From: a bacterium
Lineage (GTDB): Bacteria > Patescibacteriota > Minisyncoccia > Minisyncoccales > GBS-2
Direction: 5' to 3'
NCBI GenBank assembly: GCA_036803205.1
Contig: DAIRUS010000001.1
Coordinates: 20,290-84,289 of the forward strand
DNA length: 64,000 nt
Shown here one piece after another: positions 9,044 through 35,911 of the stretch. The stretch's first letter is position 1. The number at the start of each line of letters is the position of its first letter. Both the position numbers and the translations under genes were made by a program. The notes under the pieces are model-generated. The model was not told the origin of the DNA. It did not search any database and was given only the letters and a program-made list of their open reading frames with translations.

Positions 9044-9108
9044 CTTTTGTTGGTGTTAAAACAACGTATTTCTCTTAATTTTGTCAAAAACAACAACAAT
9101 TAAACTAT

Positions 9109-16107: not shown

Positions 16108-17406
16108 TTATTCAGCAGTCACCCTTTCTATTTCCTCGAAAGTTGTTTTTCCTTCTAAAACTTTAATATATCCATCGAGATGCATTTCGACCATTCCTTT
16201 TTTTATTGCCAGCTCCTTCAAATCGACAATTGAAGGGTTGGTTAAAATAAACCTTTCCATCTCGTCATCGACAACAAAGACTTCAAAAATACCCATCCTT
16301 CCTTTGTAACCGGTAAAATTACAACTTCGACAACCCTTAGTCACAGGAACTTTCATCCATGACCTTAGCTCTTTGACTTTCACGTTTTTAGGAAGACCCT
16401 TAAATGCCTCTTGTAATTTAGTCAAGCGTTCAGACGAAATTAGCTGGAATTGGACGCATTCTTTGCAGACCTTTCTGACTAACCTTTGACCAATAACTAA
16501 ATTTAAGGCGGGAGCGATATTACTTAGTTTTTCTCCTAAAGATTGTAAGCGAGCGACCGTGCCAGCGGCATCATTGGTATGCACGGTGGTAAGGACCAAA
16601 TGACCGGTTAAGGCTGCTTGGAAAGAGATTTGAGCGGTTTCAGAATCGCGGATTTCTCCGACTAAAATAACATCTGGGTCTTGTCTGACAACCGCTCTTA
16701 GGGCATTAGCGAAAGTGTAGCCTTTTGATTCGTCAACTTGACTCTGAGAAACTCCTTTTAAGTGATATTCGATGGGGTCCTCGATAGTGATGATTTTAAT
16801 TTCTGGAGAAGTTAGTTTTTGAAGAAAAGCATAAAGGGTGGTGGTTTTTCCTGAACCAGTCGGACCAGTACAGATAATCATTCCGGTGGGTTTTTTTAGT
16901 TCCTCATAAAAAACTTTCAGCATATCTTCTCTTAAATCAAGGTCTTCCATGCTCACTACCCACTTTGGGTTTAGAATTCTCATTACTATTGCTTCTCCAT
17001 ATTCAGAGGGGAGAGAGGAGGTTCTGATTTCAATCGAGGTATCTTCAATTAAAAGAGAAAAACGACCATCTTGAGGCCGGTTGGTTATATTGAGTTTTAA
17101 ACCGGAGAGAAGTTTCAAACGGGAAAGCAAAGCTTGATAAACAGCAAGGTCTAACAATAAAACATCATGCAAAACTCCGTCAATTCGGATGCGTAAAAGA
17201 ACATTTTCTTTTTTTGGCTCTAGATGGATATCGGAAGCGTCAAGGTAGAGAGTGCCGATTAGGAGGATTTCAACTAAGCCGGTTATTTCTCCGGAGAGAA
17301 GTCTTTCAATTTCTTTCTTGAAATCTAAGATACATTTTATTTTTTCTTTGGCGACCAAAGTTTTTTCCGGTGAAATTTTGACTTGGCCGGTGAGTTTTTC
17401 TCTCAT
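16108..17406 (-). CDS. type II/IV secretion-family ATPase (PilB/GspE/ComGA-like)
   Basis: Walker A ICTGPTGSGKTTTLYAF. Asp box, His box and C-terminal tetracysteine (CKEC...CRSC) typical of PilB/GspE. Adjacent to ComEA-like. Confidence 0.8.
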   Translation of the reverse strand: MREKLTGQVKISPEKTLVAKEKIKCILDFKKEIERLLSGEITGLVEILLIGTLYLDASDIHLEPKKENVLLRIRIDGVLHDVLLLDLAVYQALLSRLKLLSGLKLNITNRPQDGRFSLLIEDTSIEIRTSSLPSEYGEAIVMRILNPKWVVSMEDLDLREDMLKVFYEELKKPTGMIICTGPTGSGKTTTLYAFLQKLTSPEIKIITIEDPIEYHLKGVSQSQVDESKGYTFANALRAVVRQDPDVILVGEIRDSETAQISFQAALTGHLVLTTVHTNDAAGTVARLQSLGEKLSNIAPALNLVIGQRLVRKVCKECVQFQLISSERLTKLQEAFKGLPKNVKVKELRSWMKVPVTKGCRSCNFTGYKGRMGIFEVFVVDDEMERFILTNPSIVDLKELAIKKGMVEMHLDGYIKVLEGKTTFEEIERVTAE

Positions 17407-17506
17407 AATTTTTAAAATTTACATTTTTCTCAATTTCTCTAAAATAGAAGATGGATTAATTCTTCAACTGATTATTTTTGGTTATCTCATTTTTTTAAAT
17501 TTGTCA

Positions 17507-17956
17507 ATGGAGAAAAACTATCTTACCAAAAATTCCTCTCAAACAAAAAAAATAGGAGAATTACTTGCGAAAAATCTTCTCAATAAAGGAATTAAAAAAA
17601 GAGCCTTAGTCATTGGTTTGGAAGGAGATTTGGGTGGTGGAAAAACTACTTTTTTACAAGGATTTGCTAAAGGTTTGGGGATAAAAGAGAAAATTTTAAG
17701 CCCCACCTTTATTATTATGAGAAAATTTAAAATTCGGGATTCAAAATTTAAAACCTTCTATCATTTTGATTGTTATCGGATTGAAAAACCAAAAGAGATA
17801 TTAAAATTGGGTTTTGTAAAGATTCTTTCTGGCCCAAGAAATATTGTCGCTATTGAGTGGCCAGAAAAGGTAAAAAAATTTTTACCGAGGAAAATAATTT
17901 GGGTTAATTTCCAACTTATTAGTAAAAACAGTCGAAAACTTATAATAAAAGAATAA
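17507..17956 (+). CDS. tsaE: tRNA threonylcarbamoyladenosine biosynthesis protein TsaE
   Basis: P-loop GLEGDLGGGKTTFLQGFAKGLG. Start placed at MEKNY; the longer ORF from 17252 overlaps pilB and is probably not translated. Confidence 0.7.
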   Translation: MEKNYLTKNSSQTKKIGELLAKNLLNKGIKKRALVIGLEGDLGGGKTTFLQGFAKGLGIKEKILSPTFIIMRKFKIRDSKFKTFYHFDCYRIEKPKEILKLGFVKILSGPRNIVAIEWPEKVKKFLPRKIIWVNFQLISKNSRKLIIKE

Positions 17957-17988
17957 AAAGAAAAGGAGTTTTGCTCCTTTAATTTGAA

Positions 17989-18939
17989 ATGGAAAAAAAA
18001 AGATTAATCATCATTGATAGTAATTCTATTATTCACCGCGCCTTTCACGCCTTACCGGTTTTGACTACAAAAAAAGGAGAATTGGTTAATGCTGTTTATG
18101 GTTTTTTATTGGTTTTTTTTAAAGCAATCAGGGAGTTCCAACCAGATTTTATTGTTGCCTGTTTCGATTCACCCGGGCCAACTTTTCGTCACAAAAAATT
18201 TGAAGAATACAAAGCAAAAAGACCTCCCACGCCAAAAGATTTAGTTTCTCAATTTCCGAAAGTAAAAGAAATTTTAAATGCCTTTAACGTTTCCATTTTT
18301 GAGAAAAAGGGCTTTGAAGCCGATGATTTAATTGGCACGATTACTAAAAAGTTTCCAGAAATTGAAAAGATTATTTTAAGTGGTGATTTAGATACTTTAC
18401 AGTTAATTGACCCCCAGACCAAAGTTTATCTCCTCAGAAGAGGGGTGAAAGAAACAATTTTATATAATGAAAGCCGGGTTCAGGAAAAATACCAAGGTTT
18501 AGGTCCAGCTGGGCTTGTTGATTTCAAAGCTTTAAGGGGCGATCCTTCTGATAATATTCCGGGATTGCCCGGCATTGGCGAGAAAACCGCTGTTGAGTTG
18601 ATTTTGAAATTCGGCAGTTTAGAAAATTTATACAAAGAGCTTGAAAAAAACTCTGAAAAAACCAAAACCCTTAAACCTAAACTAAAAGAAAATTTATTGA
18701 AATATAAAAAACAGGCAATCCTTGCGGCAGCATTAGTTAAAATTGAAAGAAATATATTATTAGATGTCGATTTAAAAAAATGTCACTGGCAAGAATATGA
18801 TAAGACGAAAGTCGTTCAGTTCCTAAAAGCCCTTGAATTCGAAAGTTTAATTAATCGTCTGCCAGAGCGGAAAGAGGTTCGGGGACAAGAAAAACCAGTT
18901 TTTAAAAAAGAAATTAAAGAAAATCTAAAATTGTTATAA
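17989..18939 (+). CDS. 5'-3' exonuclease (FEN / Pol I N-terminal domain family)
   Basis: LIIIDSNSIIHRAFHALP, acidic clusters, and helix-3-turn-helix GIPGIGEKTA. Confidence 0.8.
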   Translation: MEKKRLIIIDSNSIIHRAFHALPVLTTKKGELVNAVYGFLLVFFKAIREFQPDFIVACFDSPGPTFRHKKFEEYKAKRPPTPKDLVSQFPKVKEILNAFNVSIFEKKGFEADDLIGTITKKFPEIEKIILSGDLDTLQLIDPQTKVYLLRRGVKETILYNESRVQEKYQGLGPAGLVDFKALRGDPSDNIPGLPGIGEKTAVELILKFGSLENLYKELEKNSEKTKTLKPKLKENLLKYKKQAILAAALVKIERNILLDVDLKKCHWQEYDKTKVVQFLKALEFESLINRLPERKEVRGQEKPVFKKEIKENLKLL

Positions 18940-19046
18940 AATTCTACTCAATAGAAGAAAAATTGGCCAACCGAAAACCATCTAAAATTAACTTGTTGGC
19001 AAAACGACAAAAATGGTAGAATGAAAAAAAGAGAAGTCCGAGGGAG

Positions 19047-19688
19047 ATGAAAAAAATAAATAAGCATAAATTTATGACCAATAACCAAATTAATCAGGAG
19101 GAACTTCAGAGATTGCTTGAGCTTCCGGGCAAAGTCAGGGGACAGGTGTTTATAACTGATTTCAAATATATCAAAGAGAAAGAAGGAAAGAGAGGGCTAG
19201 AGATTTTAAAAAAAAGAATGGAAAAATTGGGAAACCCAATTGATTACGAAAGGATAAAAACATTTGATTGGTATCCAGTCGGCCTGAGGGCCGTTTCTTT
19301 GTTGGTTATTAAAGAAACCTTTGGTTTTAGAGAGAAAGAGATTTCTGTAATGGGGAATTCAGCCCCAAAATATTCTTTCATTGTTAAATTGATAATGAAA
19401 TATTTTTTTTCTCTCCACAAAGTTTTTCAAGAGTCCCCAAAGTATTGGAAAAAGCATTATAACGTCGGTGAGCTAGAGACAGTGGAACTTAACGAAAAAG
19501 AAAAATATCTTATTGTCCGTTTAAAAGATTTTAAAGTCCACCCCATTTTATGTAATTACTTATTTGAAGATGGTTATTTTTTAAGACTCGCTCAATATGT
19601 CTTAGAAAGTCCAAACATTACCTCAAGAGAGACTAAGTGTATGTTTAAGGACGACCCCTATCATGAGTGCTTAATAAAGTGGGAATAA
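19047..19688 (+). CDS. V4R-like (4-vinyl-reductase-type) small-molecule-binding domain protein, paralog A
   Basis: C-terminal pattern ELETVELNEKEKYLIVRLKDF...CNYLFEDGYF...ETKCMFKDDPYHECLIKW fits V4R-like G.LE.VE...V...C.f..GY...ETkC..G...C.F (judged from memory). Paralogous to the next gene. Confidence 0.4.
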   Translation: MKKINKHKFMTNNQINQEELQRLLELPGKVRGQVFITDFKYIKEKEGKRGLEILKKRMEKLGNPIDYERIKTFDWYPVGLRAVSLLVIKETFGFREKEISVMGNSAPKYSFIVKLIMKYFFSLHKVFQESPKYWKKHYNVGELETVELNEKEKYLIVRLKDFKVHPILCNYLFEDGYFLRLAQYVLESPNITSRETKCMFKDDPYHECLIKWE

Positions 19689-19691
19689 ATT

Positions 19692-20297
19692 ATGGTCGAC
19701 CCAAAAGAGGAATTTGGAAAATTAAATTTGGAAGCAATTAAAGGCGAGGTAATTGGTCTGGCCCTAGAAAACCATTTTAAATTTATTCTCGAAAAATACG
19801 GTCCAGAGGAAGTAAAGAGGCTTGAGGAAGGTTTGGCAAAATTGGGATATTCTCTTAAACACCAAGAGATAGAAAATTTTAAGTGGTATCCAAGAAAAAT
19901 AGACGAAGCTATCTATTTTGTGCTGAAAAAGATGCTTAACTGGGAAGACGAGATTTTCAGAGAAAGTGGAAAACTAGGAGCAAAAATTTCTTATATTACC
20001 CGGGTTATGATGCGTTATTTTGTTTCGTTAGAACGGATTTTTCAAGAAGTGGGCAACTATTGGCGAAAATACTACACCGTTGGTCATTTAAAGCCAGTGG
20101 AACTTAGCCTTAAAGAAAGATATTTTATTCTGGAGTTAGAAGATTTTCCAATCGTCTGCTCCGAACACTGTCGGTATTGGGAGGGGTATTTTTGGCAAAT
20201 TACCTCTCATGTTTTACCAAAAGAAAATTTAAAACTATGGGAAACAGGCTGTCCTCTTAAAGGAGCCAAGGTCCATCGTTTTAAAGCTACTTGGTAA
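19692..20297 (+). CDS. V4R-like domain protein, paralog B
   Basis: YWRKYYTVGHLKPVELSLKERYFILELEDFPIVCSEHCRYWEGYF...ETGCPLKGAKVHRFKATW aligns with paralog A. Confidence 0.4.
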   Translation: MVDPKEEFGKLNLEAIKGEVIGLALENHFKFILEKYGPEEVKRLEEGLAKLGYSLKHQEIENFKWYPRKIDEAIYFVLKKMLNWEDEIFRESGKLGAKISYITRVMMRYFVSLERIFQEVGNYWRKYYTVGHLKPVELSLKERYFILELEDFPIVCSEHCRYWEGYFWQITSHVLPKENLKLWETGCPLKGAKVHRFKATW

Positions 20298-20309
20298 TTT
20301 TTTATTGGA

Positions 20310-20891
20310 ATGGAGGAAAAAGATTCTCAAAAAATTATTATTGAACAACTTTCCCAGGATTTAGAAGATTTGGGAGGTTATTTACAGGACCTTTGGCAAT
20401 TTTTGCCCTTACCGATTCTTTATGTCAACCCCCTTTTTATTATTCTGGATGTTAATCAGGCCGTGGAAAGGGTTTTTGGCCTTAAAGCAATGGATTTGAT
20501 TGGAGAAAAGATAGAGAAGCTTTTGAAGAGCGAATTGACCGTCAAGATTCTCGAAGAAATTTCAAAAGAAAAAAAAATTGAAAATAGAGAATTAAAGTTA
20601 GTAACCAAAGAAGAAAAGAAAGTGTTTAGCCTCTCGGCCAGCAGTCGTCGAGACGCTGAAGGCAACATTATTGGTTATTATTTTTCTTTCTTTGACATCA
20701 CTCTTTTAAAGGAACTTCAAGAAAAATTAGAAGAAAAGGTAAAGGAGAGAACAAAAGAATTAGAAGAAAAAATTGTTCAACTTGAGACTTTTCAACGACT
20801 TACAGTCGGCCGGGAATTAAAGATGATAGAATTAAAAAAAGAAATAGAAAAATTAAGAACTCAATTGAAAAAGGTCGAAAAAAGGAAATAG
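20310..20891 (+). CDS. cytoplasmic PAS-domain protein with C-terminal signalling-helix/coiled-coil tail
   Basis: PAS-like ILDVNQAVERVFGLKAMDLIGEKIEKLL. S-helix repeat VKERTKELEEK. C-terminal motif FQRLTVGRELKMIELKKEIEKL shared with the 21713 gene and the HK. Confidence 0.6.
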   Translation: MEEKDSQKIIIEQLSQDLEDLGGYLQDLWQFLPLPILYVNPLFIILDVNQAVERVFGLKAMDLIGEKIEKLLKSELTVKILEEISKEKKIENRELKLVTKEEKKVFSLSASSRRDAEGNIIGYYFSFFDITLLKELQEKLEEKVKERTKELEEKIVQLETFQRLTVGRELKMIELKKEIEKLRTQLKKVEKRK

Positions 20892-20900
20892 ATCGTTTTT

Positions 20901-21704
20901 ATGAAAAACATAAATCTCATCTTTGTTTCAATTCTGTCAATTCTGATTGTTGTATTGGTAGGAGGGTTTGTTTATTATTGGTTTTTGTCTTCTCTTGGTA
21001 AAAAAGAAGTTGTTGACCCTAAAATTAAAGAGATAATTAGTCGGGGTAAAATTTTAGTCGGGACGGAAGCCGCTTATCCTCCTATGGAATATTTTGACGA
21101 GACCGGCAATTTTGTCGGTTTTGACATTGATTTAGCCAAAGAAATCGCTTCCGATCTTGGAGTGGGGGTGGATTTTAAAAATCTTCCTTGGGTAGAAATT
21201 TTTGATTCAGTAATGAAAGGCGAAGTCGATATGATAATTTCTGCCATCGCTATTACTCCAGAAAGACTTGAGGCTTTAAGCTTTTCTGATCCCTACCTTA
21301 ATGTTGGCCAGGTTATTGTTACTAAAAAAGATTTAGTCATTCAAGGAGTAGAAGACCTTCAAGGAAAAATTATAGGCGTTCAAAAAGGAACAATAAGTGA
21401 AGAAGAAGCAAAAAAACGCACCGACCTTTCTCTCGTCAAAAGTTATGCCAATTATTCTTTAGTTAAAGAAGCCCTTTTTCGAGGAGAGATTGAAGTAATT
21501 CTGATTGATTACCCGGCCGGAATAAAAATGGTGGCCCAAGACGAGGAGTTGAAAATTGTTGGAGAGCCTTTCACTCAAGAATTTTATAGCGTAGCAGTTC
21601 AGAAAGGTCAAGAGGTTCTTTTGGCGAGAATTAATCAGACAATCAGGAGACTAAAACAAACAGGAAAATTAAGGGCTTTAGAAGAAAAATGGCTGAGCGA
21701 ATAA
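20901..21704 (+). CDS. periplasmic substrate-binding protein, family 3 (amino-acid-binding type), membrane-anchored
   Basis: N-terminal TM, then KILVGTEAAYPPMEYFDETGNFVGFDIDLAKEIA (SBP_bac_3-like). Confidence 0.7.
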   Translation: MKNINLIFVSILSILIVVLVGGFVYYWFLSSLGKKEVVDPKIKEIISRGKILVGTEAAYPPMEYFDETGNFVGFDIDLAKEIASDLGVGVDFKNLPWVEIFDSVMKGEVDMIISAIAITPERLEALSFSDPYLNVGQVIVTKKDLVIQGVEDLQGKIIGVQKGTISEEEAKKRTDLSLVKSYANYSLVKEALFRGEIEVILIDYPAGIKMVAQDEELKIVGEPFTQEFYSVAVQKGQEVLLARINQTIRRLKQTGKLRALEEKWLSE

Positions 21705-21712
21705 TCATCTAA

Positions 21713-22792
21713 ATGAAAATACGACTTTCTCTCCAAATTAAATTAGTTTTAACGACAGCGGTGGTAGTGATTTTTGCTTTTTCAATTTTGGCTTATTTAA
21801 CCATCGAGAGTCAAAGGAAATTTTTTCAATCTATTTTTCAAAATTTAGCTATCAATGTAGCCCAAACTCTTGAGGCTAATATTACTACCAATAAAGACCT
21901 CGAAGATAGGGCTAAACTTTTATCAAATATATTGAAAATAGTCAGTGGAGAGAGTGGGGTTGGGCCCTGGATAGTTTTGATTAATATAAATCTACCCGAC
22001 AATGGCGTCCTTAAAACAGTAGTTTCCAACAATAGTATTTTGATTGGGACAAAACCATCGCCGGAAAATTTTTACACTTATCGTGATGGAAAAACGCGAC
22101 TAAGTAAAATCAAGGGACCAGACCAAACTGAACTATTAAATGTCATTACCCCTATCAATATTGGAGGTGAAAAAGTGGGCACTTATGAGATAAGATTATC
22201 TCTCCAGGAATTAGAAGAGACAATTTCTAAAACTCAGAGACAATTTCTAATAACGACATTTATTTCGGTTACTTTTATTATTTTTAGCCTTTATTTTTTG
22301 ATGAAACTGACGGTTATTAATCCAGTCAAAGAAATGCAACTTGGCATGAAAGAAGTTGGCGAGGGTCATCTTGATTTTCGGATTAAAACGAAAAGAAAAG
22401 ATGAATTTGGAGATTTAATCCTAGGATTTAATCAAATGGTTGACAGGCTTCAAGAAAGTTATCATAAATTAAAAGAGATTCAAAAGAATCTTGAAAAAAT
22501 GGTTCAAGAGAGAACCCAAAAATTAGAGGAGGCCAAATCGGTCCTTGAAATAAAAGTGAGAGCTAGAACTCGAGAATTAAAAGATTTAACCTCTGTTCTT
22601 GAAGAAAAAGTTAGAGAAAGGACCAAAGAACTTCGAGCCAGCCAAGAAGAACTTCAAAAGAAAATTAAGGAATTGGAGAAATTTCAGAAATTAGCGATTG
22701 GTCGAGAGCTAAAAATGGTAGAAATGAAAAAGAAAATTAAAGAGTTGGAAGAAAAATTAAGACCCCAAAACCAAAACGGTTCTCCAAAATGA
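21713..22792 (+). CDS. membrane sensor with HAMP domain and signalling helix but no kinase domain; paralog of the N-terminal half of the HK at 25074
   Basis: Two TM helices flank a periplasmic region. HAMP KDEFGDLILGFNQMVDRL matches the HK's KDEFEDLAITFNEMVKEL. S-helix repeats VQERTQKLEE / VRARTRELKD / VRERTKELRA. Ends in GRELKMVEMKKKIKELEEKL with no HisKA/HATPase. Confidence 0.65.
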   Translation: MKIRLSLQIKLVLTTAVVVIFAFSILAYLTIESQRKFFQSIFQNLAINVAQTLEANITTNKDLEDRAKLLSNILKIVSGESGVGPWIVLININLPDNGVLKTVVSNNSILIGTKPSPENFYTYRDGKTRLSKIKGPDQTELLNVITPINIGGEKVGTYEIRLSLQELEETISKTQRQFLITTFISVTFIIFSLYFLMKLTVINPVKEMQLGMKEVGEGHLDFRIKTKRKDEFGDLILGFNQMVDRLQESYHKLKEIQKNLEKMVQERTQKLEEAKSVLEIKVRARTRELKDLTSVLEEKVRERTKELRASQEELQKKIKELEKFQKLAIGRELKMVEMKKKIKELEEKLRPQNQNGSPK

Positions 22793-23781
22793 CCATAAAG
22801 ACAATTTTAATTGCCTTACTTATCTTTTTTCTTCTTTTTTACTCTCTTTACTTTTGTTGGTATTCTTTCTTTTTTACTCTTCCGGCGGAAAAACTGGAAG
22901 TTTTCCCGCCGGAACAACCGAAAAGAGGACCTGGTGGGAAAGATTATCTTGCCCAAGGGGTGGAAATCTTTGAACTAAGGAAAAATGGCGAGACTGTTTT
23001 TTTGTTTTTACCAAAAGGAGTTGACTTGAATTCTCAACCAGTTCTTTTAGTTTTTTTTCAATTTACTTTTGACCACTGGCAACGTCTTACTAAAAACGCC
23101 AACCTTCTTCATTTAGCTAAAAAAGGAAATATTGTTGTTGTGCCGGTTTATCAAAGGTCAATTTGGGACCCGTTTGATTCCCAAAAATTGATTAGTAAAA
23201 GTTATGAATTAACCAAAGAGGCTTTTGCTAAAATAAGAGAGCTTGCTCCCCAAAACGATTTTTCCAACTTTGCCATTTTAGGAATTTCTTTAGGCAGTGC
23301 AATTGCTACTCAGATTATTAATACCGACCTGCCTTCAACCCAAGCTTTAATTCTTATTGTTCCTACCGAAGGATTACCTTTAATTTCTCCCCGAATTTAT
23401 GGAGTTCCTTTTGGGGATTTAAAAGTACTTTCTTATAATTCTTTTTTGGTTGGTATTTTAGCCGAAAAAGATCACATCGTTTTTCAGTCTCGGATTGAAA
23501 AATTATTTAAACAAGCCGTTCCAAGAGAAAAACATCTTTTCAAAATTCCCTCTGATAATTACGGAAGTCCGCCAGTTATTAGTAACCATTTAAGCTTTTT
23601 TAATCAGTTTAATGTTCTTAATTTTTATGGCTACCTGAAAATTGTTGACGCGACTTTAAGTTGCCTTTTTTACAACCGGGATTGTGCAATTGCCAAAGGA
23701 GAAAGCGAGGAAGCTTTTTCGATGGGAAAATGGAGCGATGGTCGGCCGATTAATCAAATTATAAAAATTTTTCCCAAATAA
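22789..23781 (+). CDS. membrane-anchored alpha/beta-hydrolase-fold protein (esterase/lipase-like)
   Basis: N-terminal TM. Nucleophile elbow GISLGS (GxSxG). Confidence 0.5.
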   Translation: MTIKTILIALLIFFLLFYSLYFCWYSFFFTLPAEKLEVFPPEQPKRGPGGKDYLAQGVEIFELRKNGETVFLFLPKGVDLNSQPVLLVFFQFTFDHWQRLTKNANLLHLAKKGNIVVVPVYQRSIWDPFDSQKLISKSYELTKEAFAKIRELAPQNDFSNFAILGISLGSAIATQIINTDLPSTQALILIVPTEGLPLISPRIYGVPFGDLKVLSYNSFLVGILAEKDHIVFQSRIEKLFKQAVPREKHLFKIPSDNYGSPPVISNHLSFFNQFNVLNFYGYLKIVDATLSCLFYNRDCAIAKGESEEAFSMGKWSDGRPINQIIKIFPK

Positions 23782-23966
23782 GAATTTACGATTAATACTT
23801 TATTGCTATTAACTGTTAGTCGAGAAATAAAAATGATAGAATTAAAAAAAAGAATTAAAGAATCAGAAGAAAAATTAAAAAACAAATAGAAAAAATCATT
23901 ATTTTATCTTTTTGTCAAATTTTCCAAAAAGGTCGGGCTAAACTTTAAACTTTTTTAAATCAAAAT

Positions 23967-25058
23967 ATGGCTAAAAAAATTTGGTTAATTTTGTTTTTAA
24001 ATTTAATAATCCTAATTATTGGTGGTGCAATTTTTCTCTCAAGAAAACCTTCTCCTCCACTTCCTTCCCCAACTAAGGAAAGAGAACTCAATATTTTTAA
24101 TTGGGAAGATTATCTTTCTGAAGAAGTGATTAAAGATTTCGAGGCTAAATTTGGAATTGAAGTTAATCTCGATACTTTTGGAGAGAGCGAAGAAATGTTT
24201 TCGGTTCTCCAGTCACAGCCAGACAAATACGATTTAGTAGTGACCGATGACCGGATGGTGATTTTAATGAAAAATTTAAAATTACTTTCTCCCCTTGATC
24301 ATTCCCAATTACCTAACTTGAAATATCTCAAACCCCAAATGAAGGAAAACGCTTATGATCCCGGTAATATTTATTGTCTTCCCTATGTTTCAGGTTTCAC
24401 CGGAATTGCTATTAATGAAAAACACGTCAAAGATTTTGACGGAAGGCGAAAAATTCTTTGGGACGAAAAATATAAAGGAAAAATTAGTTTACCCAATATT
24501 TCGGAAGAGGTTCTTTTTAACGCCCTTTTTTATCTTGGTTATTCAATTAATACCCCTAATCAAAATCAGTTAGAAGAAGCAATTAATTTAGTTTTAAAAC
24601 AAAAACCTTTAGTCATCGGCTATGACGATCCAATCAGACAAAGAGAATTGCTGATTAACGAAGAGGCCTGGATTGCCTATATTTACTCGACCGAAATTGA
24701 ACCAATTCAAAGAATCAACCCTGACATTAAATTCTTCGCGCCAAAAGAAGGGGTTTTGCTCTGGACTGATAATTGGTGTATTCCTAAAGATGCTCCTCAT
24801 AAAACTGCTGCCCACCAATTTTTGAATTATCTTTTCGAACCAGAGGTAAATGCCAAAAATTCCCAAGTAATTGGAGTAATGACGGTGAACGAAAAAGCTC
24901 AAGATTTTCTTTCGGCCGAATTTAAAAAAAGAATGGAGGGACTTGATTTTCCTTTAGAGGAAGAAACATTTTCGAAAAGTCAATACTTTACCGAAATTTT
25001 GGATATCAAAATCAGGGAAGCAGTTAATCGATTAGAGGCCGAATTGTTTACTGATTAA
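23967..25058 (+). CDS. periplasmic solute-binding protein, family 1 (PotD/PotF polyamine-binding-like), membrane-anchored
   Basis: N-terminal TM, then LNIFNWEDYLSEEVIKDFEAKFGIEVNLDTFGESEEMFSVLQ, the PotD-like N-terminus. Confidence 0.65.
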   Translation: MAKKIWLILFLNLIILIIGGAIFLSRKPSPPLPSPTKERELNIFNWEDYLSEEVIKDFEAKFGIEVNLDTFGESEEMFSVLQSQPDKYDLVVTDDRMVILMKNLKLLSPLDHSQLPNLKYLKPQMKENAYDPGNIYCLPYVSGFTGIAINEKHVKDFDGRRKILWDEKYKGKISLPNISEEVLFNALFYLGYSINTPNQNQLEEAINLVLKQKPLVIGYDDPIRQRELLINEEAWIAYIYSTEIEPIQRINPDIKFFAPKEGVLLWTDNWCIPKDAPHKTAAHQFLNYLFEPEVNAKNSQVIGVMTVNEKAQDFLSAEFKKRMEGLDFPLEEETFSKSQYFTEILDIKIREAVNRLEAELFTD

Positions 25059-25073
25059 TTTTTAAATGAAAAG

Positions 25074-27383
25074 ATGAAAAGTTTTAAAATATCATTTAGA
25101 ACAAAAACTATTTTTGTTTTACTTTTCTTTGGGATGGCGCCTCTTTTTCTGAACGGTCTTTTTACTCTTTTTAGTTCTGAAAGTTTTCTTAAAGCAAGAA
25201 CCAGCCAAAATTTAGAGGAGATAAATAAATTAGTGGCTGGCCAAATTGAAAATTTTATTACTGAAGCCTTCAAGAGTGTTATTATCTTTTCCCAAAACCC
25301 TATTCTTGCCTCGCTAGAAGTTTCCCTAGAAGAAAAAGCATCTGAGATAGAAAAACAAGCTTTTTATTATCCAATCTTTCAGGATATTACCCTTCTTGAT
25401 AGAAATGGTCGCCTTCTTACTTCTTCTTCATTCAAATTTTATGGTAAATGGACGAGTAATTTTTGGTTTTTGGAGGCGAAAGAAAAGAAAAAAGTTGTGA
25501 TGTCTGACCTTTATGCAACGGTTGATGTTACTCAACCAATTTTGGCTTTTTTTGTTCCCATTGTTAATCAAGAAGGAGAAATTAATTTTTTCATCGTTAC
25601 TCAGATTAACACTGATAGATTTTTAGAGATAATTAGTTCAGTTACTGTCGGCGAAAGAGGACAGGTTTTTTTAATCAATTCAAGAGGAGATATTATTGCC
25701 CACCTTTATCGTTCCATTCTTTTTGAAAAAATTTCTCCAACTTATCCTCTAAAAATGGCCAGCCTTATGAAAAAGGGTGAAGTTAATTTTGATTTCCGCG
25801 GGGAAGAAATGATTGGTAATTTTAGGGTTATTGAAAGCTTTCAGCAATATCCCGGCAAAAACTGGCATTTAATTGTAGCCCAACCCAAACAAGAAGCTCT
25901 TAGTTTAGTGAGAGAGATTAGAAATCAAACTATTCTCTTCTTAATCTTCTCTTCTTTAGCCATTATTTTAATCGCCTCTTTTTTGGGTAAATACATCACC
26001 CAACCTTTGGAAAAACTGGCTTTGGCAGCAAAAAAAGTTTCGGCTGGCGATTTCCAGGTTCAGGTAGATATTCACACTAAAGATGAGTTCGAAGATTTGG
26101 CAATTACTTTTAACGAAATGGTGAAAGAATTAAAAAATTTTTACACCTTTTTAGAAGAAACTAAGAAAAATTTGGAAGCCCAAGTGAAAGCGCGGACGGA
26201 AGAACTAGAAGTTTTAGCTAGCAATCTTGAGAAAGAAGTTAGGAGGCGAACAGAAGAGCTTCAAAGAAGAATTCAAGAATTAGGAAACTCAAGAATTGCT
26301 TTAATGAATATCTTAGAGGATGTCGAAGCAGCTAGAAAAAAAGCTGAAGAGGAAAGAGATAAAACCACAGCTTTATTTGTTAATTTTGCCGACGGCCTCT
26401 TATTTTTTGACCAAAAAAACAATTTTTCAATGATTAATCCTCAGGCAGAAATCTTTTTCAACGTTAAGGGAAAAGAAATAATTGGTCGCAACATTCTAGA
26501 GTTTTCCCATCTTCCAGGGCTATCTTCTTTGGTACAATTTTTAGGAAAAGAACCGAGAAAAATTTTTAGAGAAGAACTATTTCTTAGAGAAGATCTGGTT
26601 TTAGAAGTTTCAACCGTCTCTATAGGAGAAACGGGTATCCTGGTTATTTTGCGTGACGTCACCCGAGAAAAAATGGTTGAAAGAATGAAGACCGAATTTG
26701 TTTCTCTTGCTGCTCATCAATTGAGGACACCGCTTTCAGCGATTAAATGGACCCTCCAAATGTTTTTAGAAGGAGATCTGGGCAAGATAACGGAAGAGCA
26801 AAGGGAGTTTGTTGAAAAAACTTATCAGGCAAATGAAAGAATGATTAGATTAATCAACGACCTTTTGAATGTCGCGCGGATTGAAGAAGGAAGATATCTT
26901 TATAAGCCCATCCTTTCCGATCTTGGATTAATTGTTGAATCTGTGGTAGACTTTTATAAAGAGGAGGCTGAAAGAAAAGGGGTTAAAATTAAATTTGAAA
27001 AGAAGGAAAAATTACCAAAGGTTAAAGTGGATGAAGAAAAGATAAAATTAGCCGCTACCAATTTAATTGACAATGCAATCGAGTATACTCCAAAAGGAGG
27101 GGAAGTGACAATTTGCCTTAAAAGTGATAAAAAAGAAATAGAGTTTTCAGTTCAAGATACAGGAATAGGGATTCCCGAAAATCAAAAAGAAAGAGTTTTT
27201 ACCAAATTTTTCAGAGCGGCTAATGCAATGAGAATACAAACGGAAGGAACAGGGTTAGGGCTTTTCATTACAAAAAATATTATTGAAGCTCATAAAGGTC
27301 GAATTTGGTTTCAATCAAAAGAAGGAGAAGGAACAACTTTTTATTTCACCTTACCTATTGCAGAAGAAGGAGAAAATTTTTGA
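25074..27383 (+). CDS. sensor histidine kinase (periplasmic sensor domain, HAMP, S-helix, PAS, HisKA, HATPase_c)
   Basis: Two TM helices around a periplasmic domain. HAMP KDEFEDLAITFNEMV. HisKA H-box FVSLAAHQLRTPLSAI. N-box LIDNAIEYT. G-boxes DTGIGI / GTGLGL. Confidence 0.85.
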   Translation: MKSFKISFRTKTIFVLLFFGMAPLFLNGLFTLFSSESFLKARTSQNLEEINKLVAGQIENFITEAFKSVIIFSQNPILASLEVSLEEKASEIEKQAFYYPIFQDITLLDRNGRLLTSSSFKFYGKWTSNFWFLEAKEKKKVVMSDLYATVDVTQPILAFFVPIVNQEGEINFFIVTQINTDRFLEIISSVTVGERGQVFLINSRGDIIAHLYRSILFEKISPTYPLKMASLMKKGEVNFDFRGEEMIGNFRVIESFQQYPGKNWHLIVAQPKQEALSLVREIRNQTILFLIFSSLAIILIASFLGKYITQPLEKLALAAKKVSAGDFQVQVDIHTKDEFEDLAITFNEMVKELKNFYTFLEETKKNLEAQVKARTEELEVLASNLEKEVRRRTEELQRRIQELGNSRIALMNILEDVEAARKKAEEERDKTTALFVNFADGLLFFDQKNNFSMINPQAEIFFNVKGKEIIGRNILEFSHLPGLSSLVQFLGKEPRKIFREELFLREDLVLEVSTVSIGETGILVILRDVTREKMVERMKTEFVSLAAHQLRTPLSAIKWTLQMFLEGDLGKITEEQREFVEKTYQANERMIRLINDLLNVARIEEGRYLYKPILSDLGLIVESVVDFYKEEAERKGVKIKFEKKEKLPKVKVDEEKIKLAATNLIDNAIEYTPKGGEVTICLKSDKKEIEFSVQDTGIGIPENQKERVFTKFFRAANAMRIQTEGTGLGLFITKNIIEAHKGRIWFQSKEGEGTTFYFTLPIAEEGENF

Positions 27384-27393
27384 AAACGAAACC

Positions 27394-27765
27394 ATGAAAA
27401 AGAAAATTTTATTAGTGGAGGATGAAGAGATAATAAGAAATCTTCTTAAAAAGAAATTAGAACAAGAAGGTTATGAAGTAAAAATAGCGATAGACGGTGA
27501 AGATGGTCTAAAAGCAATGCGGAACGAAAAACCAAACCTTGTTTTGTTAGATATTATCATGCCAAAATTGAGCGGATTTGAAGTGATGGAAGAAATACAA
27601 AAGAACGAAGAATTAAAGATGATTCCGGTTATCGTAATTTCAAATTCAGGCCAGCCAGTTGAATTAGATAAGGCCAAAAAATTAGGGGCAAAAGATTGGT
27701 TAATAAAAACAGAATTTGACCCCCAAGAGGTAGTTGCCAAAGTAGTAAAACAAATAGGGAGATAG
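27394..27765 (+). CDS. single-domain response regulator (receiver only)
   Basis: KKILLVEDEEIIRNLL...LLDIIMPKLSGFEV...KDWLIK. Conserved acidic pocket, phospho-Asp and Lys. Start placed at MKKKILLVEDE. Confidence 0.8.
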   Translation: MKKKILLVEDEEIIRNLLKKKLEQEGYEVKIAIDGEDGLKAMRNEKPNLVLLDIIMPKLSGFEVMEEIQKNEELKMIPVIVISNSGQPVELDKAKKLGAKDWLIKTEFDPQEVVAKVVKQIGR

Positions 27766-27766
27766 T

Positions 27767-28135
27767 ATGGCAAAGAAAATTCTTATTATAGAAGATGACA
27801 AATTTTTGAGAGAGCTTATTTCCCGAAAACTTGAGAATGAAGGATATTCGATTGTTGAAGCTGTTGATGGAGAAGAAGGAATCAAGAAAATAAGAGATGA
27901 ACCTCCAGATTTAGTTTTACTTGATTTAATTTTACCCGGAATTGATGGTTTTGAATTTTTAACCAGAGTAAAACAAGATCCAACTCTAGCTCCCATTCCG
28001 GTTATTGTTTTATCTAATCTTGGGCAGAGGGAAGAAATTGAAAAAGGATTAAAATTGGGAGCGATCGACTACCTGGTGAAAGCTCATTTTACTCCAGGAG
28101 AGATTGTCGAAAAGATTAAAAACGCTCTTAGATAG
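27767..28135 (+). CDS. single-domain response regulator (receiver only)
   Basis: KKILIIEDDKFLRELI...LLDLILPGIDGFEF...IDYLVK. 122 aa, no output domain. Confidence 0.8.
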   Translation: MAKKILIIEDDKFLRELISRKLENEGYSIVEAVDGEEGIKKIRDEPPDLVLLDLILPGIDGFEFLTRVKQDPTLAPIPVIVLSNLGQREEIEKGLKLGAIDYLVKAHFTPGEIVEKIKNALR

Positions 28136-28218
28136 TCTTGAATAGTTAAAGAAGCTTCATATTAAAGGCGTAAAACAGCGAAAAAGATGAAGTGTTTTAG
28201 GGATACGCCTTGATGACT

Positions 28219-29109
28219 ATGCCAGAATTACCAGAGGTTGAAACTACTGTTTTAGATTTAAAGGCAAAGATCCTGAAGAGGACCTTTGTTGACGTTTGGA
28301 CGGATTCAAAAAATTTAATTAAAAAACCAGAAAGCTTTGAGAAATTTAAAAAAGAAATTAAAGGAAAAAAAATTAAAAACATTTGGCGCCGGGGAAAGAA
28401 TATTATTTTTGAGTTGAGACAAACCGGAGTGAGACCAAAACTTTTTTTATTAATCCACCAAAAAATGACCGGGCATTTGCTTTTGGGAAAATGGAAATTA
28501 GAAAGAGAGAGATGGCAGGCAAAAAATCCCGGCCCCTTGGCTGAAGATCCGATGAATAGATTTTTGCATCTGATATTTTGGTTAAACGATGGTCAAATGC
28601 TAGCTCTTTCTGATTTAAGGAAATTTGCCAAAGCAGAATTATTAGATGAAAAAGATTTAGAAAAGGAACTAAGTGCTTTGGGTCCAGAACCTTTGGAAAA
28701 AGATTTTACTTTTGAAAAATTTAGAAAGTGTTTGGCTAAAAAAAAGAAAGGAAAAATAAAACAAGTTTTAATGGATCAAAAAGTTATTGCTGGAATCGGC
28801 AATATTTATTCTGATGAAATTTTATGGGAGGCAAGGGTGCATCCCTTTAAAGAGATTAGACAATTGGACAAAGAGGAAATGAAGAAAATTTATCAGGCGA
28901 CAAAAAAAATCTTACTAAAAGCAGTTGAGTTAGGTGGCGAATCAATTTCTGATTACCGAAAACCTTCCGGAGAAAAAGGAGGTTTTGATCCTTTAAGAAA
29001 GGTTTATCGTCGAGAAGGTGAAAAATGTTCTCTCTGTGGAGTTATTATTAAAAGAACAAAACTAGCCGGGAGATCAGCTCATTTTTGTCCCCAGTGCCAA
29101 AAACTATGA
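28219..29109 (+). CDS. mutM: formamidopyrimidine-DNA glycosylase (Fpg/MutM)
   Basis: N-terminus MPELPEVETT (catalytic Pro2/Glu3). H2TH domain. C-terminal zinc finger CSLCG...CPQCQK. Start placed at MPELPEV. Confidence 0.85.
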   Translation: MPELPEVETTVLDLKAKILKRTFVDVWTDSKNLIKKPESFEKFKKEIKGKKIKNIWRRGKNIIFELRQTGVRPKLFLLIHQKMTGHLLLGKWKLERERWQAKNPGPLAEDPMNRFLHLIFWLNDGQMLALSDLRKFAKAELLDEKDLEKELSALGPEPLEKDFTFEKFRKCLAKKKKGKIKQVLMDQKVIAGIGNIYSDEILWEARVHPFKEIRQLDKEEMKKIYQATKKILLKAVELGGESISDYRKPSGEKGGFDPLRKVYRREGEKCSLCGVIIKRTKLAGRSAHFCPQCQKL

Positions 29110-30059
29110 TTATATTTTTATATGGAACTGATACCTACAGATCTAGACAGAAGCTAAACGAGATTATCGAACATTACCAAAAACTCCACAAAAGTGGGTT
29201 GAATTTAATTTCTTTTGAAGGAGAAAAATTAGATTTCTCAGATTTCAAAAATACCCTCAATTCTTCTTCAATGTTTAAAGAGAAAAAATTGATAATTTTA
29301 AAAGAGATTTTTTCTAATCCAGTTTTTAAAGAAGAATTTTTAAAAGAAAAAGAGAAACTGGTTAAGGTTAAAGATATAATTTTAATCTATGAAAAAAAAG
29401 AAATTAACCCTAACGATTCTTTCTTTCGATTTCTCAAAAAAAATTCCAAATTTCAAGAATTTAATCCTTTAAGGGCTGAGAAATTAGAGAATTGGGTTAA
29501 AAGAGAGTTTTTAAAATATGGCAGAGAAATTGAAAGAGAGGCTTTAGATAGACTAATTGAATTCGTCGGCAATAACCTTTGGCAGATGGCAAACGAAATT
29601 AAAAAATTGGTTAATTATAAAGGATATAAAGGAAGAGAAAAAATTAAAATTAAAGATGTTCAACTTTTGGTCAGACCAAAGATTGAAACCGATATTTTTA
29701 GAACCATTGGCGCAATATCCGAAAGAAAAAAACCCTTGGCTTTACGCTTTCTTCATCAGCATTTAGAAAAAGGCGAGAACCCCTTATATTTATTGGTAAT
29801 GATTAACTTTCAGTTTCGAAATTTACTCGCCTTGCGGTCTCAATTGATGAATAAGGGTCGAATGTTTCAAATAAATGACTTAAGCAAAAAATTAGGATTA
29901 CCCCCCTTGGTAATCGGAAAGTTAATTCCTCAGGCCAGAAAATTTTCCTTAGAGGAATTAAAAAAAATCTACCAAAAAATATTTGAAGTAGATCTTAGTA
30001 TTAAGACCGGGAAAATAAAACCAGAAATAGCCTTAGATTTACTTATCACTGAGATTTGA
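29106..30059 (+). CDS. holA: DNA polymerase III delta subunit
   Basis: MIIFLYGTDTYRSRQKLNEII... delta-subunit N-terminus. About 318 aa. ATGA overlap with the fpg stop. Confidence 0.65.
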   Translation: MIIFLYGTDTYRSRQKLNEIIEHYQKLHKSGLNLISFEGEKLDFSDFKNTLNSSSMFKEKKLIILKEIFSNPVFKEEFLKEKEKLVKVKDIILIYEKKEINPNDSFFRFLKKNSKFQEFNPLRAEKLENWVKREFLKYGREIEREALDRLIEFVGNNLWQMANEIKKLVNYKGYKGREKIKIKDVQLLVRPKIETDIFRTIGAISERKKPLALRFLHQHLEKGENPLYLLVMINFQFRNLLALRSQLMNKGRMFQINDLSKKLGLPPLVIGKLIPQARKFSLEELKKIYQKIFEVDLSIKTGKIKPEIALDLLITEI

Positions 30060-30309
30060 AGATTAATTTTGTAATCCTTGATTTTTTCCTAGCAGCAGTA
30101 TTTTTCTTGATGAGAGCTTTTTTAGCTGCCTTATCTAAAACTTTATAAACTTGGGGCAACAATTTTTTTGCCTCTTCAATCTTCTTTTGAGAAACCAATC
30201 TCTTTACCTCTTTAATTAGGCTTTTTATTTTTTCTTTTTTTTGGATATTTCTGGCCCTTCTTTTTAAATTTTGACGAAGGGCTTTTTTTGCTGATTTAGT
30301 AATAGGCAT
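30046..30309 (-). CDS. rpsT: 30S ribosomal protein S20
   Basis: MPITKSAKKALRQNLKRRARNIQKKEKIKSLIKEV...; 87 aa, basic. Confidence 0.85.
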   Translation of the reverse strand: MPITKSAKKALRQNLKRRARNIQKKEKIKSLIKEVKRLVSQKKIEEAKKLLPQVYKVLDKAAKKALIKKNTAARKKSRITKLIFKSQ

Positions 30310-30371
30310 TTTTTTAGATTAACATATTTTGAAAGTTTTTTCAATATGTTAAAATAAAAATTGATTTTATT

Positions 30372-30800
30372 ATGGAAAAACCTTCAATCCAAGGAGAACC
30401 CCCACTTGAAAAAGGAATGTCAGCTGAAGAACATCCTGAAATTGAAGAATTAAAAAAGAGAATTGAAAAACTGGAAGCGCGTTTAGAAAGAAAAAAAATA
30501 CCCGAGGAAAGAGAAAAGATTATTAAACAGGAAATTAAGGCTTACCTTCAAAGGATTCAAAAAATGCCTTCTTTTGCCGCTCCTCGGACAGCGAGAGATG
30601 AAGCAAAAGAAATAGCAGTTCTTCCCCCCAGCCAACAAGTTGGAGCCTTAATTTCTCTTGTTTTTGAAAAAAGCTTAAAAGAAGCAATCTCGATTGCTAG
30701 GACCCTTAATAATCCAGCGATTTTAGACGAATTTCATGATATTTTAGTTGACCGTTATTATCAAACTCTTGTTGAAAAAGGAATTTTAAAATCTTTATAA
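30372..30800 (+). CDS. hypothetical coiled-coil protein, translationally coupled to the downstream T4CP gene
   Basis: Charged coiled-coil N-terminus. Stop lies 3 nt before the T4CP start. No recognisable motif. Confidence 0.4.
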   Translation: MEKPSIQGEPPLEKGMSAEEHPEIEELKKRIEKLEARLERKKIPEEREKIIKQEIKAYLQRIQKMPSFAAPRTARDEAKEIAVLPPSQQVGALISLVFEKSLKEAISIARTLNNPAILDEFHDILVDRYYQTLVEKGILKSL

Positions 30801-30802
30801 AA

Positions 30803-33265: not shown

Positions 33266-33421
33266 TTTACCATTTATTTAATTTATAATTATATATATAA
33301 CCAAATTTTGAATTTAGTAGAAAAAAGAGTAGAAAGAGGCAGGAAAAAGAGATTAAAAGACTTCACAAAAAAAGTCACCAAATAAAAAAAAGGTCGAAAA
33401 TAAATCATAAAAATAAAAAAT

Positions 33422-34102
33422 ATGCCTGAGTTTGGATTTCAATTTGAAGGGAAACCTCAACAACCTAAAACGGAAAGAAGAGAAGACAGAGAAGAAAGGG
33501 AAAGAAGAGAAAAAATAGCCCATGTTCAGGAACTTGTTTCACCCACTAGCAAAAGAGACGACCTTTATGAACTGATAACAAGGGAAGTTTACAAAGGAAG
33601 TGACTTGCAAGAAGAGCGTAAAGCCAGATTAAGGGAAATTGGATACGACCCTAATTACTTAGAACAAGTAGGGAAAGATAATATAAGGCGCTGGGAAGAA
33701 TTGATAAATAAAACAAGCTTTGAAGGAGGATTATCTCCACGAGAACAGGAAGAATCCAAAAGGCTTTTTGGTTTATGTTTTAGAGAACAAGAAGGAAAAG
33801 GATTTCGGCATTCTGAATTAACTATCGGAGCTATGACTGAATTTTCAAGACAAATAGGAAAGCTAATGGCGGCAGGATTAGAAGGAGACCCTAAAAAACG
33901 AGAGGAAACATTTTTTGGATCGTCGTCGGTCGAAATTTCGCCCCAAATGGTAGAAAGATTTGTTAAAGAAAGAAACTCAGAAAAGATGGAAGAAGTTGCC
34001 AAAAAGATGAATTCTATTATTGAAAAAATTGAGAGTCCAGATAAGCAAAAACAATATACGGCGATCAGAGGATTTTTATTTCGAGAATCCAAAGAAAAAT
34101 AA
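33422..34102 (+). CDS. hypothetical charged (K/E/R-rich) protein
   Basis: ORF only. Low-complexity N-terminus. No motif recognised. Confidence 0.4.
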   Translation: MPEFGFQFEGKPQQPKTERREDREERERREKIAHVQELVSPTSKRDDLYELITREVYKGSDLQEERKARLREIGYDPNYLEQVGKDNIRRWEELINKTSFEGGLSPREQEESKRLFGLCFREQEGKGFRHSELTIGAMTEFSRQIGKLMAAGLEGDPKKREETFFGSSSVEISPQMVERFVKERNSEKMEEVAKKMNSIIEKIESPDKQKQYTAIRGFLFRESKEK

Positions 34103-34205
34103 GACGTTAAAGTAGAACGAAAATTTGCCTCGTACGTCTAAAAAATAAAAGTAAAAACATTGGAAAGTTTATCGGCCAGAAATAGAAAAAGAAAATAAAA
34201 TTATT

Positions 34206-35006: not shown

Positions 35007-35052
35007 TTTCTACGCTTCAAAAAAAGAAAAGCGTTAATAATCAAAAAAAATA

Positions 35053-35907: not shown

Positions 35908-35911
35908 CACT

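Follow-up and report, generated by a model that had tools for sequence, protein, structure and literature searches.

A conserved two-component gene island of Candidate Phyla Radiation bacteria whose kinase-less sensors share a terminal S-helix-like segment

We describe a gene island (19047–28135) in a 64-kb stretch of DNA, referred to as the window in its whole length, that is part of a 105-kb metagenome contig (DAIRUS010000001.1). The island consists of 10 tightly packed open reading frames (ORFs; g1–g10, all on the plus strand) for two V4R-like proteins, two kinase-less sensors, two membrane-anchored solute-binding proteins (SBPs), an anchored hydrolase, one histidine kinase and two receiver-only response regulators. 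Since about 30 other genomes carry this set of genes at the corresponding locus, far above chance, the island is a genuine gene cluster, and it is almost certainly a conserved two-component system. Every kinase-less sensor of this system ends in a common C-terminal helix (CTH), and sensor modules of one and the same kind are found both in kinase-fused and in CTH-ending form. We propose that the island is one multi-input two-component system, vertically inherited in Paceibacteria-type bacteria of the Candidate Phyla Radiation (CPR), in which detached sensors feed the kinase g8; we hold this overall reading to be evenly poised between right and wrong. The original prediction, made from the sequence letters alone, had placed the island correctly at these coordinates and had given it 11 genes; the ORF list contains 10 on the plus strand, as many as the items that the prediction itself names. 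Its domain calls were all verified with Pfam and NCBIfam or, for g1, g2 and g6, with family members, models and conserved motifs.

Thirty-eight non-duplicate loci, gathered around g1 homologs and, for L043 and L044, from the CTH side, were annotated with hidden Markov models (HMMs) built from the island proteins. About 28 loci keep the core V4RL, PASn-kinase, RECA and RECB in one slot, preceded by T2SSE (on the minus strand), tsaE and a 5′–3′ exonuclease gene and followed by fpg and holA. This core comprises one to three genes of the g1/g2 family (V4RL), a kinase beginning with PASn (the PAS domain also found in g3) and two receivers of fixed type (RECA and RECB). Variable sensors surround it, namely transmembrane (TM)–HAMP and dCache–HAMP proteins, polytopic proteins of 430–450 aa, small PAS proteins, and anchored SBP_bac_3, Bmp, PotD-like or FIST proteins. 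The core-bearing loci are nearly all labelled Paceibacterota, Parcubacteria or generic CPR, many labels of metagenome-assembled genomes (MAGs) being generic. When two CTH-only proteins encoded on long contigs were used as starting points, both led to the same island.

The kinase g8 (25074–27383; 769 aa) has the architecture TM–dCache_1–TM–HAMP, two S-helix units, an ‘ALMNILED’ helix, PAS, HisKA and HATPase_c. Its Pfam matches to HisKA (E = 8e-17) and HATPase_c (E = 2.8e-31) and its motifs AAHQLRTP, NLIDNAIEYT, DTGIGI, FTKFFR and GTGLGL identify it as a histidine kinase. Neither g3 nor g5 matched HisKA or HATPase in Pfam; MCPsignal gave no match in either protein, and the NCBIfam MCP models covered the HAMP region only. 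g3 (20310–20891) is a soluble protein composed of PASn (PAS_9, E = 5e-11), one ERT S-helix and the CTH, without an enzymatic domain. g5 (21713–22792) has a WalK-N-terminal-like outside domain between two TM helices, followed by HAMP (E = 4e-13), three ERT/ART S-helix units and the CTH. The two proteins share a C-terminal sequence (ETFQRLTVGRELKMIELKKEIEKL in g3 and EKFQKLAIGRELKMVEMKKKIKEL in g5), which belongs to a segment of about 36 residues with the consensus ...F-x-[KR]-L-x-V-G-R-E-L-K-M-I-E-L-K-K-E-I..., S-helix-like and terminal. This CTH comprises residues 155–190 of g3 (IVQLETFQRLTVGRELKMIELKKEIEKLRTQLKKVE; 20772–20879) and residues 318–353 of g5 (22664–22771), and its Arg-Glu pair was invariant in the alignment of the island loci.

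The S-helix has been described as a heptad coiled coil with an ERT signature, the Arg of which occupies a ‘d’ position, and as a unit that is found ‘almost always between two signaling domains’ (Anantharaman, Balaji and Aravind 2006, PMC1592074). ERT/ART units of this kind, with a 21-residue spacing, are present once in g3 (VKERTKEL), three times in g5 (QERTQKL, RARTREL and RERTKEL) and twice in g8 (KARTEEL and RRRTEEL). As read from the sequence, the CTH prolongs the S-helix heptads and brings an Arg back to the ‘d’ position three heptads past the ERT Arg, and the heptad register is kept by a 7-residue insertion in g5 and its ortholog in L007, the closest relative of the window. In g8 the S-helix lies between signaling domains; in g3, g5 and 35 further proteins the S-helix/CTH run is terminal. 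The CTH thus differs from the classical S-helix in forming the protein end and in having a consensus of its own, and such a terminal S-helix-like segment is unusual because the S-helix almost always connects two signaling domains.

Across the loci, the CTH was found in 37 distinct kinase-less proteins, always at most 16 aa from the C-terminus. Between one and three ERT-bearing S-helix units precede it, and the N-terminal parts of these proteins differ, being TM–HAMP, dCache–HAMP, polytopic membrane, PASn or none at all. Since a homologue search by alignment returned mostly fragments of at most 107 aa, the census was taken by running HMMER exhaustively against 1.84 billion representative proteins; 15,483 clusters matched the CTH at E ≤ 1e-3, of which 2,484 reached E ≤ 1e-10. 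The motif started at most 45 residues from the C-terminus in 126 of the 131 motif-bearing top matches, the exceptions having a low-complexity tail or a second copy, and no globular domain followed the CTH among the top HMMER matches. A limited literature search that included CPR/Parcubacteria found no description of the island, the CTH or the V4RL–PASn pair and nothing specific on output-less HAMP sensors; as far as can be told, a CTH common to detached sensors is undescribed.

Two further types of CTH protein were observed in related loci. Genes located directly 5′ of a V4RL gene in L043 (8001–8282), L044 (8001–8279) and L017 (1697–2026) encode proteins of 92–109 aa that consist of S-helix and CTH only and carry no sensor domain; they could be adaptors or competitors. 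In the minimal islands L004, L012–L015, L009 and L032, the sole CTH protein is a polytopic membrane protein of 430–450 aa, a type absent from the window. In L004, where its gene is at 8674–10029, its N-terminus (MKILIAYYSKTGQTAKLA...) appeared flavodoxin-like by eye.

We also considered the CTH as a degenerate H-box (pseudo-DHp helix) and rejected this idea, as an hhalign comparison with the DHp domains of 31 island kinases gave a probability of 0.2%. The same comparison bears on the possibility that g3 and g5 are functionless, truncated kinase pseudogenes. Their architectures do correspond to N-terminal halves of kinases, and relics of CTH-coding sequence (see below) show that genes have decayed within the island. 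However, the CTH is a distinct, strongly conserved element with an invariant Arg-Glu and not a leftover of kinase truncation; it is intact in thousands of protein clusters, where it is always terminal, and the g3 and g5 ORFs are themselves intact and tightly spaced. We therefore regard the pseudogene explanation as very improbable.

Gene fusions and fissions point to a possible relationship between the CTH and the kinase. In most relatives, the kinase is a soluble protein of 520–550 aa with the architecture PASn–S-helix–SR.ALMNILEDVE–PAS–HisKA–HATPase, its PASn being the same as in g3. In the window and L007, dCache–HAMP takes the place of PASn on the kinase, and PASn is present on the separate g3. 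L019, L020 and L043 have a short kinase that begins near the ALMNILED helix, with a PASn–CTH gene directly 5′ of it; in L031, a FIST gene separates this pair. In L002, L031 and L039, the gene after an SBP gene encodes dCache–HAMP–CTH and no kinase, a split form of the g7–g8 arrangement of the window. PASn–S-helix thus continues either as ALMNILED–PAS–kinase, as in most loci, or as CTH, and dCache–HAMP–S-helix continues either as kinase (window and L007) or as CTH. The same sensor modules are seen both ways, and the ALMNILED junction is the point at which either the kinase or the CTH follows the last S-helix. In g8, this conserved junction helix comprises residues 405–422 (NSRIALMNILEDVEAARK; 26286–26339). 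A tandem duplication of the kinase junction motif (SRTALMNMLEDVEGSRKALMNMLEDVEE) was observed in L002 (12595–14226) and L009 (10600–12246); its 14 extra residues amount to two heptads, in keeping with a coiled coil whose length can be adjusted.

The distribution of the two elements is consistent with their belonging together. A kinase with the NILED helix was present in all 27 loci that have a CTH gene (Fisher p = 0.002, for loci that are phylogenetically non-independent), and the three kinases without the helix (L018, L023 and L024) come from loci without a CTH gene. CTH variants reading ‘REI’ were confined to loci whose kinase reads LED[T/A], a weak hint of covariation. On these grounds, docking of the CTH to the kinase is a tentative proposal, to which we give somewhat less than an even chance. 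Alternatively, the kinase-less CTH proteins might have no contact with the island kinase: the CTH might direct them to the receivers, to a pilus or secretion ATPase, to an envelope machine or to some other target, or might simply oligomerize the sensors into a scaffold with its own output. This would explain why the CTH is never fused to any part of a kinase and why the S-helix+CTH proteins of 92–109 aa look more like adaptors or competitors than sensors, and a T2SSE ATPase gene is indeed a conserved neighbor. It does not account for sensor modules alternating between kinase-fused and CTH-ending forms at exactly the same junction or for the co-occurrence of CTH genes with the NILED-type kinase, and the T2SSE gene is transcribed divergently, with tsaE and the exonuclease gene between it and the island. 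We consider a different target of the CTH possible, if rather unlikely.

The first two genes of the island, g1 (19074–19688; 204 aa) and g2 (19692–20297), encode paralogs (34% identity, E = 2e-36). Two starts come into question for g1: the ATG at 19074 is more likely, the homologs and the called gene beginning there, and one database member uses the alternative start at 19047 (213 aa). More than 200 homologs of about 200 aa were found, and the few that bear names are from Pacebacteria or Nealsonbacteria. g1 and g2 themselves gave no NCBIfam match and no Pfam match at E ≤ 0.1, and among 42 family members, weak matches to V4R (PF02830) were detected in 22 (E ≤ 1; best E = 1.9e-5) and matches to HNOB (PF07700) in none at E ≤ 1. 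As a profile search of the family against PDB sequences yielded chance matches only, its kinship with solved structures is visible only at the fold level. An AlphaFold2 (AF2) model of g1 (pLDDT 92.5) was compared with the PDB using Foldseek: the top match was the H-NOX structure 3tf8 (E = 3e-6, TMt 0.71), 37 of the top 40 matches were H-NOX or soluble guanylate cyclase (sGC) beta1 structures, and further matches included the V4R domains of MopR, PoxR and DmpR and the V4R protein MJ1460 (5kbh, 5frx, 6iy8 and 2oso).

Within the V4RL family, C160 and C189 do not vary, E186 and H197 are shared by at least 90% of the sequences, and g2 keeps the C...E-T-G-C-x7-H pattern. Given that the zinc ligands of DmpR are C151/E172/C177/C185 (PMC7264223), which are similarly spaced, residues C160/E186/C189/H197 of g1 may form a putative zinc site of the V4R type. 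A second conserved motif, KYWxKH, is located in the g1 model (as K-Y-W-x-K-H-Y) at a helix/strand junction, the inferred spot of the Y-x-S-x-R motif of H-NOX; helix 102–111 of the model, the inferred counterpart of the heme-ligating helix of H-NOX, carries no conserved His, as read from the secondary structure of the model and not from a residue-level superposition. ‘V4R-like’, as these proteins had been called in the original prediction, therefore proved a fair label, given the weak family matches, the H-NOX/V4R-superfamily fold and the V4R-type Cys/Glu/Cys/His pattern.

V4RL proteins resemble the V4R domains of the XylR, DmpR, MopR and PoxR activators and the stand-alone archaeal protein MJ1460 in their Foldseek matches, in a C...E-x2-C-x7-H pattern like the zinc ligands of DmpR and in a conserved Trp before this pattern, besides the weak V4R matches of 22 family members. 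They differ in that they are stand-alone proteins associated with a kinase, not with an AAA+ activator, that their topology scores nearer to H-NOX than to MopR, and that g1 and g2 remain below every Pfam threshold. The genomic setting resembles that of the H-NOX systems with HnoK or HahK, stand-alone H-NOX proteins being described in PMC4436077 as controlling adjacent histidine kinases. In both cases a soluble protein of about 200 aa with an H-NOX-like fold is encoded directly 5′ of a kinase, and the adjacent kinase serves more than one response regulator; as in sGC, an H-NOX-like element is followed by a PAS domain and an ERT-type S-helix. In contrast to H-NOX systems, V4RL gives no HNOB match, seems to have a V4R-type Cys/Glu/Cys/His site in place of a conserved heme-ligating His, and has its PAS partner on a separate polypeptide.

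The gene order links V4RL to PASn in particular. In 37 of 42 cases, the V4RL gene, or the last of a V4RL run, was followed within 150 bp, often with overlap, by a gene starting with PASn, and this count includes non-CPR loci; the window fits this rule, with g1 and g2 followed by g3. Upstream of the V4RL run, a CTH-ending gene was found in 24 of 45 cases, the remainder being mostly the island boundary. We therefore think that V4RL and PASn are probably functional partners, a pairing that is newly noticed as far as can be told, with no description found in the literature. In MAGs outside the CPR (WOR-3, and one binned as Hadarchaeota), a PASn-starting protein follows V4RL as well (L021 8493–12527, L027 10007–12338 and L037 2–1655); these are multi-PAS proteins that did not match the island kinase core. 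L033 and L034 have arrays of five V4RL genes with no kinase, CTH or receiver gene within 20 kb, which is a different use of the family.

We next turn to the extracytoplasmic inputs. g4 (20901–21704) is an amino-acid-type SBP_bac_3 protein (Pfam E = 4.5e-40) whose nearest solved structure is the Gln/Arg-binding AncQR (E = 1e-47). g7 (23967–25058) is a PotD/PotF-like binding protein (SBP_bac_8, E = 1e-29; PotD, E = 5e-40) with Lmo0810, PotD and PotF as its nearest solved structures; its score of 137 bits against the PotD equivalog, whose cut-off is 582, indicates kinship at the superfamily level only. A hydropathy scan revealed a single N-terminal TM helix in each of g4, g6 and g7 and two TM helices, one on either side of the outside domain, in g5 and g8. 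Nine SBP genes were found across the loci (SBP_bac_3 in four loci, Bmp in two and PotD-like in three), and every one lies directly 5′ of a TM sensor gene; in the window, g4 precedes g5 and g7 precedes g8. The type of SBP tracks that of the sensor, SBP_bac_3 occurring with TM–HAMP and PotD-like and Bmp proteins with dCache–HAMP, and most genes for membrane-anchored FIST proteins are likewise located 5′ of TM sensor genes. No ABC permease or ATPase gene was found in the window or in the roughly 10 kb beyond it (about 77 kb in total). These results support the earlier suggestion that the anchored SBPs sense ligands together with the neighboring sensors, which we consider likely.

LuxP–LuxQ and TorT–TorS are examples of sensors that depend on a binding protein. 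In another such pair, NspS–MbaA, a PotD-like protein works with a membrane c-di-GMP enzyme (PMC5646818), and binding-protein-dependent sensors have been reviewed (PMC8050422). The candidate pairs of the island resemble NspS–MbaA in that an SBP gene lies beside a membrane sensor gene with no transporter genes in the cluster, and g7 is PotD-like, as is NspS. They differ in that the SBPs are tethered by an N-terminal TM helix and that g5, the presumed partner of g4, has no enzymatic output.

A contrasting explanation is that the genes are chance neighbors, with g4 and g7 being parts of ABC importers whose permeases are encoded elsewhere and g1–g6 being unrelated to g7–g10. Intergenic distances are −4 to +15 bp inside g1–g6 and likewise inside g7–g10, and the one large gap in the island, of 185 bp, separates g6 from g7. 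This gap would suit two unrelated groups of genes, g4 and g7 are close in sequence to transport SBPs, only 64 kb of the genome is visible, and the run of plus-strand genes exceeds the island. On the other hand, all SBP genes of the related loci are directly 5′ of a TM sensor gene of matching type, transporter genes are absent from about 77 kb, and about 30 genomes have genes of the g1–g3 and g5 types beside a kinase of this family. The 185-bp gap, moreover, is partly a decayed gene relic and not an operon spacer. Chance neighborhood thus appears quite improbable.

The relic in question (23782–23886, plus strand) lies in frame directly after the stop codon of g6 and corresponds to the CTH-coding 3′ end of a gene (EFTINTLLLLTVSREIKMIELKKRIKESEEKLKNK*). 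It matched the CTH HMM with 30 bits (E = 3.8e-8) and was 76% identical at the DNA level to the 3′ end of g5 over 87 nt (alignment score 72 vs 21±3 for shuffles); it is absent from the orthologous gap of L007. g6 itself (22789–23781), which overlaps g5 by 4 bp, encodes an N-terminally anchored alpha/beta hydrolase with the triad Ser167/Asp228/His267. Pfam gave a sub-threshold Hydrolase_4 match only; the distant ones among 15 homologs bear Abhydrolase_3/5 and Chlorophyllase domains, and the nucleophile elbow G165-x-S167-x-G169, D228 and H267 are invariant in the 15 sequences. The AF2 model (pLDDT 90) had cutinases and PET (polyethylene terephthalate) esterases as top Foldseek matches. Among the related loci, g6 is confined to the window and L007, and the relic after its stop codon suggests that g6 was inserted late, duplicating the end of g5.

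A similar trace was seen upstream of g1. In the gap between the exonuclease gene and g1, positions 18952–18986 of the window are similar to the 3′ end of g4 and the g4/g5 junction (score 38 vs 19±2.5), and positions 19009–19028 are similar, with a borderline score (35 vs 21±3.3), to the K-M-V-E codons of the g5 CTH. The gap (18952–19032) may be the scar of an SBP3/HAMP–CTH module that was formerly located 5′ of g1, as such a module still is in L002 and L019.

The island ends with two canonical receiver-only regulators, g9 (27394–27765; 123 aa; RECA type; Response_reg, E = 4e-25) and g10 (27767–28135; 122 aa; RECB type; Response_reg, E = 2.6e-26), which are 50% identical to each other. They contain the receiver motifs VEDEE/IEDD, LLDI/LLDL, ISNSG/LSNLG and IKTEF/VKAHF, and Response_reg was the sole Pfam match in both, in agreement with the earlier claim that neither has an output domain. 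The receivers are the best conserved genes of the island, with 64–76% identity for g9 and 69–82% for g10 across loci, as compared with 50–69% for the exonuclease. In L023 (9287–10183), both are present in one protein of 298 aa (RECA at residues 10–125 and RECB at 156–276), and this fusion suggests that RECA and RECB act together. None of the present results points to PilZ or FliM-type proteins as targets of g9 and g10. We also considered, and discarded, a connection in regulation with the neighboring T2SSE gene, which encodes a pilus-type ATPase: synteny alone is conserved, and the gene is oriented divergently and lies beyond intervening housekeeping genes.

Regarding the setting of the island, its genes are co-directional, as had been pointed out originally, and this alone carries little weight because the run of plus-strand genes spans 17252–36754. 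An extended −10 promoter (TGNTAGAAT) 5′ of g1 and g7 was dropped as promoter evidence, because its three matches in the window equal the chance expectation (3.06) and two of the three are K-M-I-E codons of a CTH or CTH relic. An Rfam scan of 17000–30000 detected no RNA family at E ≤ 1. Horizontal transfer of the island was set aside, the GC content being flat at 0.33–0.35 and the slot syntenic across genomes. Type IV secretion-like genes flank the region (1163–5745 and 30803–33265 of the window, and also 4875–7710 of L042), encoding PrgI, a TraC-like protein, a VirB4-like ATPase, two T4SS_pilin proteins and a TrwB/VirD4-like coupling protein. As dnaA and dnaN are located at 7605–10233, the island lies about 10 kb from a likely origin.

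In the multi-input system that we propose, three inputs would converge on g8. First, g1 and g2, with their putative metal site and a conserved pocket motif, would bind a small cytoplasmic ligand and act on the PASn of g3, in the manner of stand-alone H-NOX proteins acting on adjacent kinases. Second, the anchored amino-acid-type g4 would present its ligand to the outside domain of g5, and third, the anchored polyamine-type g7 would present its ligand to the dCache domain of g8. The CTH would serve as the output device of g3 and g5, coupling these detached sensors in trans to g8, either by direct contact at the ‘ALMNILED’ helix or via V4RL, which is encoded between the CTH genes and the PASn genes. 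Having integrated these inputs, g8 would phosphorylate g9 and g10; the two regulators would act by protein–protein contact, and g6, an anchored esterase-like hydrolase, would be a late lineage-specific addition.

Such a system would be reminiscent of auxiliary ‘three-component’ kinase regulators, for example, YycH/YycI with WalK or RetS with GacS, and of receptor–CheW–CheA arrays, in that kinase-less TM–HAMP–coiled-coil receptors, several per separate kinase, are proposed here. Unlike in chemotaxis, no MCPsignal domain is present, genes for CheW, CheA or methylation were not observed in the window, and the coupler would be a terminal helix of 36 residues, possibly together with V4RL. A bolder version is that CTH proteins form a large, hitherto undescribed class of ‘plug-in’ receptors, with sensors of any kind (TM–HAMP, dCache–HAMP, polytopic or PAS) docking by the terminal helix on a shared soluble kinase and V4RL serving as a coupling and ligand-gating adaptor. 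They would then constitute a non-chemotaxis counterpart of receptor–CheW–CheA and the chief means by which many CPR bacteria sense their environment; this we think unlikely.

Several points weigh against the proposed system. All of the coupling in it is inferred from gene order, fusion/fission and co-occurrence, and the CTH was never seen fused to the NILED helix or to any other partner, so there is no Rosetta-stone link. L029 and L035 have a NILED helix with no CTH gene in the DNA fetched for them. Because the loci were gathered by V4RL similarity and only two were reached from the CTH side, the co-occurrence with V4RL is conditional, and because the loci are phylogenetically related, their counts overstate independence. 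The putative zinc site of V4RL is deduced from its residue pattern alone. Finally, a scan for sigma-70 promoters and terminators performed no better than on shuffled sequences and is uninformative on operons.

To our knowledge, there has been hardly any study of how small host-dependent CPR cells perceive their environment. Kinases are very scarce in CPR bacteria, at about 0.29 per 100 genes (PMC10805038), and the island seems to be a route by which they obtain several inputs from one kinase. All parts of the island are known domain types. If the CTH does couple detached sensors to the kinase, this would represent a new modular principle for two-component signaling, give a function to over 2,000 protein clusters that lack annotation, and provide a compact, transplantable connector for sensor engineering. 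The V4RL/PASn pair would extend the H-NOX–kinase paradigm to a non-heme relative with a metal site.

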